The notes under the pieces: generated by a model
Databases searched by the model: none
Seen by the model: the letters and a program-made list of their open reading frames with translations, nothing else
Told to the model about the DNA's origin: nothing
Position numbers and translations under genes: made by a program
Virus record (IMG/VR): IMGVR_UViG_2563366976_000012
Coordinates: 1 to 20,586 of that record
Length of the DNA stretch: 20,586 nt
DNA from: a virus
Lineage: Duplodnaviria; Heunggongvirae; Uroviricota; Caudoviricetes
Direction: 5' to 3' (one strand)
Part shown: positions 12,863 to 13,135 of the stretch, one piece after another
Numbering within the stretch: the stretch's first letter is position 1
Layout of the letters: the number at the start of each line of letters is the position of its first letter

Positions 12863-12969
12863 TTATATCAAAGATAACGAACAGGCAGGACGCCCACGAA
12901 GTAGCCGCCTGGGGCATATGAAGTCCAGGATGATTCGTTAGTACCAAAAAAGCGCCCTACCGGACGCTT

Positions 12970-12983
12970 CGCTCTTTAAAAAT
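12970..12983 (+). promoter_or_regulatory. boxA-like antitermination element (nutL-like)
   Basis: CGCTCTTTAAAAAT on the plus strand; compare lambda nutL boxA CGCTCTTAAAAATTAA and rrn boxA TGCTCTTTAACAA. No clean boxB hairpin immediately follows. Confidence 0.4.
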
Positions 12984-13135
12984 CAGTAACCCTCACTTTG
13001 GGCCTGGATCTGGTGGCCTGGGACGAGGTGGAATATGAAAAGGCTCTATTGGTCGACTCATTATCCAATCCTATTATGTCTCATTTCTTCGGTTTCGGTG
13101 GTTTCGGCTTCGGAGGTACATGTCCGTGAACTGGA

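Follow-up and report, generated by a model that had tools for sequence, protein, structure and literature searches.

The window, the whole 20,586-nt stretch of DNA analyzed here, is the early region of an Escherichia coli lambdoid prophage. Over the segment that was queried, it is 100% identical to prophages in strains AR_0013, MS8345, and others, and related prophages and phages include mEp460_4F5, SfIV, Kati, e14, and CPS-53. A gene for a LexA/cI-like repressor is divergent from a cro-like gene (Table 1). The right operon, on the minus strand, extends leftward as far as a Q-like gene, and the left operon, on the plus strand, comprises a YfdP-family gene, yfdQ, yfdR, Ea22-like genes, xis, and int.

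Table 1. Coordinates of features at the early-left locus and of the flanking early genes
Feature	Position	Strand	Description and basis
Q-like gene	4009-4338	minus	Right operon runs leftward to it
cro-like gene	11854-12054	minus	
LexA/cI-like repressor gene	12152-12778	plus	Divergent from cro-like gene
Terminator-like hairpin after cI-like gene	12799-12830	plus	Inverted repeat AAAACACCGAACT/AGTTTGGTGTTTT, 92% complementary, then T-rich run
Candidate early-left promoter PL	12834-12862	plus	TTGCCA-17-TAGATT; sigma70-like, promoter scan
Conserved 5' leader RNA motif	12873-12944	plus	P1, invariant core, P3; covariation
Predicted intrinsic terminator of moron	12946-12969	minus	A6 tract and hairpin (12950-12969); strand asymmetric
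boxA, CGCTCTTTAAAAAT	12970-12983	plus	Consensus core 12971-12981; proposed NusB/NusE site
Part of PL transcript with no supported plus-strand gene, ~1.2 kb	12984-14198	plus	ORF list, PHROG/Pfam
Moron gene, 164 aa	13136-13630	minus	phrog_6315, E = 9e-64; PGAP, hypothetical protein in identical prophage
Intrinsic-terminator-like hairpin H1	14015-14062	plus	13-bp stem, then CUUUUUAC; -21.2 kcal/mol, z = -3.8
First supported early-left gene, YfdP family	14199-14561	plus	phrog_204, E = 2.5e-48; PGAP in related and identical prophages
xis	19012-19266	plus	Left operon
int	19300 onward	plus	Left operon

The early-right operon also holds two tandem copies of C4 antisense RNA plus isrK on the minus strand (9782-9970 and 10648-10833; Rfam matches at the gathering level), in or beside two tandem Rha/Ant-like regulator genes (9170-10051 and 10048-10887). 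The arrangement resembles a P1-type antirepressor control module that has been duplicated. A further set of RNA genes (1374-1963) lies 3' of the Q-like gene, as in the late regions of Stx phages: STnc100 sRNA (1430-1638, minus strand), the AsxR anti-stx2 sRNA (1374-1426, plus strand), and three tRNA genes (1717-1963, minus strand).

The candidate PL is predicted to start near position 12870. A 31-nt operator-like repeat (family D1) has copies at 12056 and 12105, between the cro-like and cI-like genes (OR), and a third copy at 12835-12865 that is 77% identical to an OR copy. The third copy overlaps PL, which is the arrangement expected of OL/PL. The hairpin that follows the cI-like gene is predicted to isolate PL from read-through out of the repressor gene.

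At about +101 from the predicted start lies a boxA. An earlier note on this DNA had described it as boxA-like, close to lambda nutL, and downstream of a candidate PL, and each of these points holds. The window reads CGCTCTTTAAAAATCAG where lambda nutL reads CGCTCTTAAAAATTAA, and the difference is an extra T of the consensus/rrn type. Its core, the 11-mer GCTCTTTAAAA (12971-12981), is an exact instance of GYTCTTTAANA, the functional gammaproteobacterial boxA consensus drawn from rrn, suhB, and mutagenesis data (Baniulyte et al. 2017, PMC5725501). The 11-mer is unique in the window, where 0.09 occurrences are expected by chance, and the site is the sole match to CGCTCTTTAA at ≤1 mismatch when both strands of the window are searched. 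The boxA is thus confirmed. In all sequence-level tests it looks like a stand-alone BoxA site, and its position in the transcript rests on the predicted promoter.

Two features upstream of boxA, a structured RNA (12873-12944) and a short hairpin, were absent from the earlier note. The leader RNA begins a few bases past the PL start and is ~70 nt long. Its P1 stem pairs 12876-12881 with 12934-12939 and is followed by an invariant 24-nt core, CAGGCAGGACGCCCACGAAGTAGC; its P3 stem pairs 12908-12912 with 12925-12929 and closes a 12-nt loop, GGCRUAYGAAnn. When 28 distinct versions are aligned, 95.2% of cells are paired, with compensatory double changes at 10 of the 14 pairs; none of 500 shuffles equaled this pairing, and slid controls gave 20 to 43%. 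Among the P1 variants are AGCGAA/UUCGCU, AACGAA/UUCGUU, GUCAUC/GAUGAC, and CCACC/GGUGG, and those of P3 include CCUGG/CCAGG, CCGGU/ACCGG, CCCGA/UCGGG, and CUACC/GGUAG. Single-sequence folding of the leader gives an unimpressive z-score; the structure is convincing because of the covariation. A covariance model built from the motif (R1) scores 93 bits at this position and identifies no other copy in the window, and an Rfam scan of 12866-13000, at the gathering threshold and at E ≤ 10, returned no match at the leader or at boxA.

The leader motif is retained in phages whose repressors, operators, and promoters differ entirely. At least 120 IMG/VR contigs contain the invariant 24-nt core. Across 93 unique upstream sequences, the end of the best sigma70-like -10 element is usually 18 to 21 nt upstream of the core, a fixed distance suggesting that the motif forms the extreme 5' end of the transcript. 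It is present in the K-12 prophage e14, upstream of ymfJ, and in mEp237, SfV, SfII, SfIV, ST64B, ZF40, and the T5-like Providencia phage PR1. Species-representative genomes yielded 99 stretches with the exact 19-nt core, and almost all are from Enterobacterales (Xenorhabdus, Yersinia, Serratia, Pantoea, Erwinia, Pectobacterium, Citrobacter, Klebsiella, and others). Overall, the leader RNA occurs in about one-fifth of complete E. coli genomes and in about 99 species-level genomes. In the accessible literature, which excludes King et al. 2011 on put-like RNAs, we found no account of boxA or the motif for these phages, and a full-text search for the motif core sequence returned nothing relevant. 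Of the two elements, the leader RNA appears to be the more novel and is a candidate for a new class of regulatory RNA.

The lambda PL leader was considered as a member of this class and set aside: only short strings are common to both (AUCAGCAG, GGACGC-CAC), and R1 gives no match. The lambda leader (L349, lambda 35518-35582) starts with AUCAGCAGGACGCAC, and many motif-bearing leaders, including those in contigs with lambda-like OL sequences (L027 and L069), start with cAUCAGCAGCGAACAGGCAGGACGCCCAC. The similarity at the PL start may mark a mosaic recombination joint.

In a subset of the motif phages, the window included, the leader is followed by an A6 tract, a short hairpin, and boxA. The hairpin differs between the strands. 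The plus-strand fold of 12938-12990 reaches -7.6 kcal/mol and has a C/A mismatch in the stem; on the minus strand this mismatch becomes a G.U pair, and 12930-12985 folds at -16.8 kcal/mol overall, with a 9- to 10-bp stem that includes G.U pairs and is followed by UUUUUU. The minus-strand stem and its six U's point to an intrinsic terminator of the convergent moron gene. As modeled, this terminator works one way, stopping moron transcripts and hardly hindering those from PL. The moron is convergent with PL, and PL transcription must cross it in antisense. A comparison of the leader and hairpin that took in mEp460_4F5, S88, SfIV, SfV, ST64B, YeP1, and ZF40 revealed that relatives have other cassettes at the moron position and keep the hairpin-boxA junction.

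Conservation in related phages, on which the earlier reading of the element depended, is borne out. The hairpin-boxA segment is found at ≥80% identity (mostly 90 to 95%) in 1,070 of 5,426 complete E. coli genomes, and most of these matches stop just past boxA. Following the leader RNA, boxA recurs in at least five unrelated flanking contexts. A consensus boxA lies within 1.5 kb downstream on the transcribed strand at 21 of 94 unique viral motif loci, and at none on the other strand. For 84 motif instances in one-genome-per-species records, the counts are 15 and 1, where we estimate ~0.16 per strand by chance; the two sets together give a strand ratio of 36:1. The 14-mer CGCTCTTTAAAAAT itself is too short for a scan of the viral collection, in which only 4 of 120 matches had the leader motif.

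Some copies of boxA stand apart from the hairpin. The identical 14-mer, with a 9-nt spacer, is present in the terminal-repeat pre-early region of phage PR1, and boxA follows the motif by 3 nt in Xenorhabdus sp. TCT-1, by 16 nt in Kluyvera sichuanensis, and by ~45 nt in Xenorhabdus BG5 and X. bakwenae; all of these lack the hairpin and have unrelated flanks. The commonest prophage version of boxA, GCTCTTTAACAATCTGG, also lies 64 nt downstream of the T7 promoter A3 and 3' of strong sigma70-like promoters in many unrelated viral contigs. On the other hand, ~78% of leader-motif loci are without boxA. Among them, L068, L071, L089, L095, and L122 are immediately followed by an antisense gene; boxA is therefore not a requirement.

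Two further arrangements were observed. In IMG/VR contigs L198 and L226, CGCTCTTTAACAATCTGG comes immediately after GTCGAACGGCGCGACTTTAAACCATGCGTCGG, a sequence resembling stem I of HK022/HK639 putL, which suggests that boxA can be joined to put-like RNAs as well. In K-12 e14 (L133, about 1201600-1201620), the PL-sense strand antisense to ymfI carries a boxA-like GACTCTTTAACTG; its second position and its tail do not fit the consensus, and chance probably accounts for it.

In E. coli-type prophages, boxA and the moron-terminator hairpin form one ~55-nt cassette with about 91 to 100% identity wherever it is present, so part of the conservation of boxA reflects recent shared ancestry. The element could even be a passive hitchhiker, a piece of a mobile moron-terminator junction (A6-hairpin-boxA-ATCTGG) of recent descent with no role at PL. 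In these prophages it always adjoins the minus-strand terminator hairpin, the antisense cassettes downstream vary, and locus L125 keeps the hairpin with a degenerate boxA. However, L125 is the one exception to a pattern in which the hairpin loop and flanks vary within cassettes and GCTCTTTAA stays constant. Together with the strand bias, the hairpin-free copies that a T5-like phage and prophages of Xenorhabdus and Kluyvera carry between unrelated flanks, and the identity to the boxA of rrn and of the T7 early leader, this pattern argues that boxA is more than a passenger of the junction, and we regard hitchhiking as improbable.

The longest ORF in the next 450 nt is antisense at all 21 boxA-positive viral loci, versus 27 of 73 boxA-negative ones (Fisher test, 6e-8, with loci treated without correction for relatedness), but this association is confounded because the hairpin is the moron's terminator. 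Hairpin-less copies are mostly followed by plus-strand ORFs 60 to 150 nt later. A rule that boxA occurs only before antisense morons holds for the hairpin cassette and fails in general, since hairpin-less copies precede plus-strand ORFs and some antisense cassettes lack boxA. These copies make a role in crossing the moron less certain than general Nus loading. N-independent loading of Nus factors on the early-left transcript would be the safer statement, with moron crossing as its most obvious beneficiary here.

The absence of boxB and of an N gene, claimed in the earlier note, stood up to wider searches. A PHROG scan of 30 ORFs (Pfam on 10) from both early operons gave no match to an N family; Q-like and CII-like proteins were detected in the ORF scans of these operons. 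An arginine-rich-motif scan in six frames found only antisense or out-of-frame segments and no N-like ORF. No boxB-type hairpin was found 3' of boxA, where a 3-bp CCC/GGG stem with a 7-nt loop lies in a nonconserved segment; homology among relatives ends right after boxA. The early-right operon has no nutR-like boxA (≤1 mismatch, both strands of the window) and no second leader motif. The only nearby plus-strand ORF (13035-13346), already noted as antisense to another gene, has no PHROG match and only a subthreshold Pfam match, and the gene opposite, the phrog_6315-matched moron, is real. Compared with lambda nut, the window has a boxA (CGCTCTTAAAAAT in lambda, CGCTCTTTAAAAAT here) and lacks boxB, N, and nutR. 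Homologues of N, cII, and cIII are likewise reported to be lacking in SfIV, SfII, and SfV (SfIV genome paper, PMC3851460). The earlier suggestion that the early-left mechanism is unlike that of lambda fits both these N-less phages and a boxA of the rrn/consensus type, although the mechanism is inferred.

An N-dependent nut of the lambda type would call for an N that is highly divergent or encoded outside the window and for leader P3 or the 12950-12969 hairpin to serve as boxB. In favor of this reading, N proteins are short and show little conservation, mEp021 illustrates that an N-like gene can have an unusual location (PMC11893012), and boxA with its AAAAAT tail closely resembles lambda nutL. 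Yet the window spans int to the Q-like gene, its 30 scanned ORFs give neither an N match nor a credible arginine-rich candidate, and the right operon has no nutR-like boxA. The same boxA is also present in T5-like (with the motif) and T7-like lytic phages, which are not known to have N. The core of the leader motif is invariant across phages of unrelated gene content, which points to a host partner. We consider an N-dependent nut very unlikely.

Ahead of the YfdP-family gene, the PL transcript runs for ~1.2 kb with no supported plus-strand gene. Windows richer in C than in G at ~13364-13480 and 13663-13766 (C/G composition scan) could serve as Rho loading sites. N-independent BoxA/Nus complexes protect long untranslated RNAs (rRNA and CRISPR arrays) from Rho (PMC7665894, PMC5725501). 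An untranslated, antisense PL RNA with potential Rho-loading windows, considered with this precedent, leads us to propose that boxA blocks Rho ahead of the first gene.

We favor, with a probability of roughly 0.6, the reading that this is a genuine consensus (rrn)-type boxA that acts without an N protein. Upon prophage induction, boxA in the nascent RNA would bind host NusB/NusE (S10). The bound boxA would nucleate a Nus complex (NusA, NusG, and SuhB) on RNA polymerase, as in rrn leaders, CRISPR arrays, and suhB. The modified polymerase would then resist Rho across the untranslated, moron-antisense RNA that precedes the gene at 14199, and this protection may reach through the entire operon as far as xis and int. 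The leader RNA probably also contributes, for example by helping polymerase to pass H1. By this route, the prophage probably escapes premature termination with host factors alone.

H1 lies inside the early-left leader, and the hairpin itself extends from 14015 to 14055. Its stem changes in relatives but stays paired (GGTACC/GGTACC, GGTGCC/GGCACC, and, in ST64B, GTCGGCGTC/GACGCCGAC), and it looks like an intrinsic terminator within the operon. A census of intrinsic terminators downstream of the motif missed H1; it was too crude and was discarded. In SfIV and Kati, a 226-aa coding sequence is annotated over H1 and H2; it is probably noncoding because the frame is broken in the window and in S88 and the stems covary. 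More broadly, the plus-strand segment 13990-14200, upstream of the YfdP-family gene, is a structured module with a fold z-score of -6.6 and no Rfam match. It includes H2, a long conserved hairpin at ~14057-14155 with four compensatory pairs, and a third hairpin at 14163-14182, and it is present in e14, ST64B, SfV, and SfIV, where the N terminus of the 226-aa coding sequence has been assigned to part of it.

Nus complexes of the rrn type are not known to overcome strong intrinsic terminators such as H1, and Nus-only complexes are not expected to do so, which leaves room for the leader motif as a put-like antiterminator. Leader and boxA could together make up a composite, protein-free nut site in which the RNA acts on polymerase as HK022 put does and boxA adds Nus factors, giving full, processive antitermination at Rho-dependent and intrinsic terminators alike, H1 included, throughout the early-left operon. 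The position of the motif is consistent with this: it lies at about +5 to +7 from many promoter/operator types (93 unique upstream sequences), the same position as that of HK022 putL. So are its strongly covarying fold, its presence in the N-less SfV, SfII, SfIV, ST64B, and e14 and across Enterobacterales, its repeated pairing with boxA in independent contexts, and the terminator-like H1 downstream in the same operon. Homology to put was considered and rejected, since R1 matches neither HK022 putL nor the annotated HK639 putL, and it gives no match to the lambda leader. The topology is also unlike that of put, with a closing stem that encloses hairpins instead of two side-by-side stems. Moreover, most copies of the motif have no boxA, and the motif could act instead in RNA stability, processing, or translation. 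Weighing these points, we view a composite site as possible but rather unlikely. The leader might be a phage RNA not described before, spread across Enterobacterales, that engages the transcription apparatus of the host and, with or without boxA, replaces N/nut without a protein; this is likewise a tentative proposal, possible but less likely than not.

On our favored reading of boxA as an N-independent site, the locus combines traits of several known systems. It resembles lambda nutL in its place in the PL leader, its sequence (CGCTCTT(T)AAAAAT versus CGCTCTTAAAAATTAA), and its presumed binding of NusB/NusE. Unlike nutL, it has no boxB, N gene, or nutR; its boxA has the extra T of the consensus/rrn type, is preceded by a weak hairpin, and comes at ~+101, after 70 nt of structured RNA. 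Identity to the E. coli rrn boxA (rrnH) extends over the 9 nt of GCTCTTTAA, and in relatives over the 13-nt GCTCTTTAACAAT. As in rrn leaders, a hairpin comes before boxA, and no phage protein would be needed (for Nus-factor biology, see PMC5725501 and PMC7665894). Unlike in rrn, however, the promoter is phage encoded and repressor controlled, there is no recognizable boxC, and the upstream hairpin is the predicted terminator of the convergent gene, not a homologue of rrn boxB.

Another parallel is BoxA upstream of CRISPR arrays and suhB (Stringer 2020; Baniulyte 2017). There, too, a consensus boxA stands alone close to where a long untranslated RNA begins, and its proposed task is to block Rho. 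Experimental validation of those sites came from SuhB ChIP, boxA mutants, and bicyclomycin, whereas the boxA in the window is known from sequence and lies in a prophage early operon. Like HK022 and HK639 put, the leader is a structured RNA with which the PL transcript of an N-less lambdoid phage begins. The put RNAs differ from it in predicted topology, neither putL matches the leader model, and put works without Nus factors or boxA. The T7 early leader, between A3 and gene 0.3, also has a boxA (GCTCTTTAACAATCTGG, the commonest prophage version) 64 nt after a promoter for the host polymerase, and no N. Unlike the prophage, T7 is lytic and has no leader motif, and the window has the variant AAAAATCAG where T7 and the common version have AACAATCTGG. 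Thus, from these comparisons, the boxA appears to join the known class of N-independent BoxA sites.

Early-left transcription has so far been unexplained in the large group of N-less lambdoid prophages. Among its members are SfII, SfIV, and SfV, which convert the serotype of Shigella, ST64B of Salmonella, and the E. coli K-12 prophage e14. The early-left operon carries the genes for recombination, excision, and integration. If the proposed role of boxA is true, N-independent Nus antitermination would extend from rRNA, CRISPR arrays, and suhB to prophage induction, and it would explain how PL transcription survives convergent, untranslated moron cassettes. If the proposal for the leader RNA is true, this RNA would be another class of put-like antiterminator, unrelated to the first, and would serve N-less lambdoid prophages (e14, SfV, SfIV, and ST64B), the myovirus ZF40, and T5-like lytic phages.
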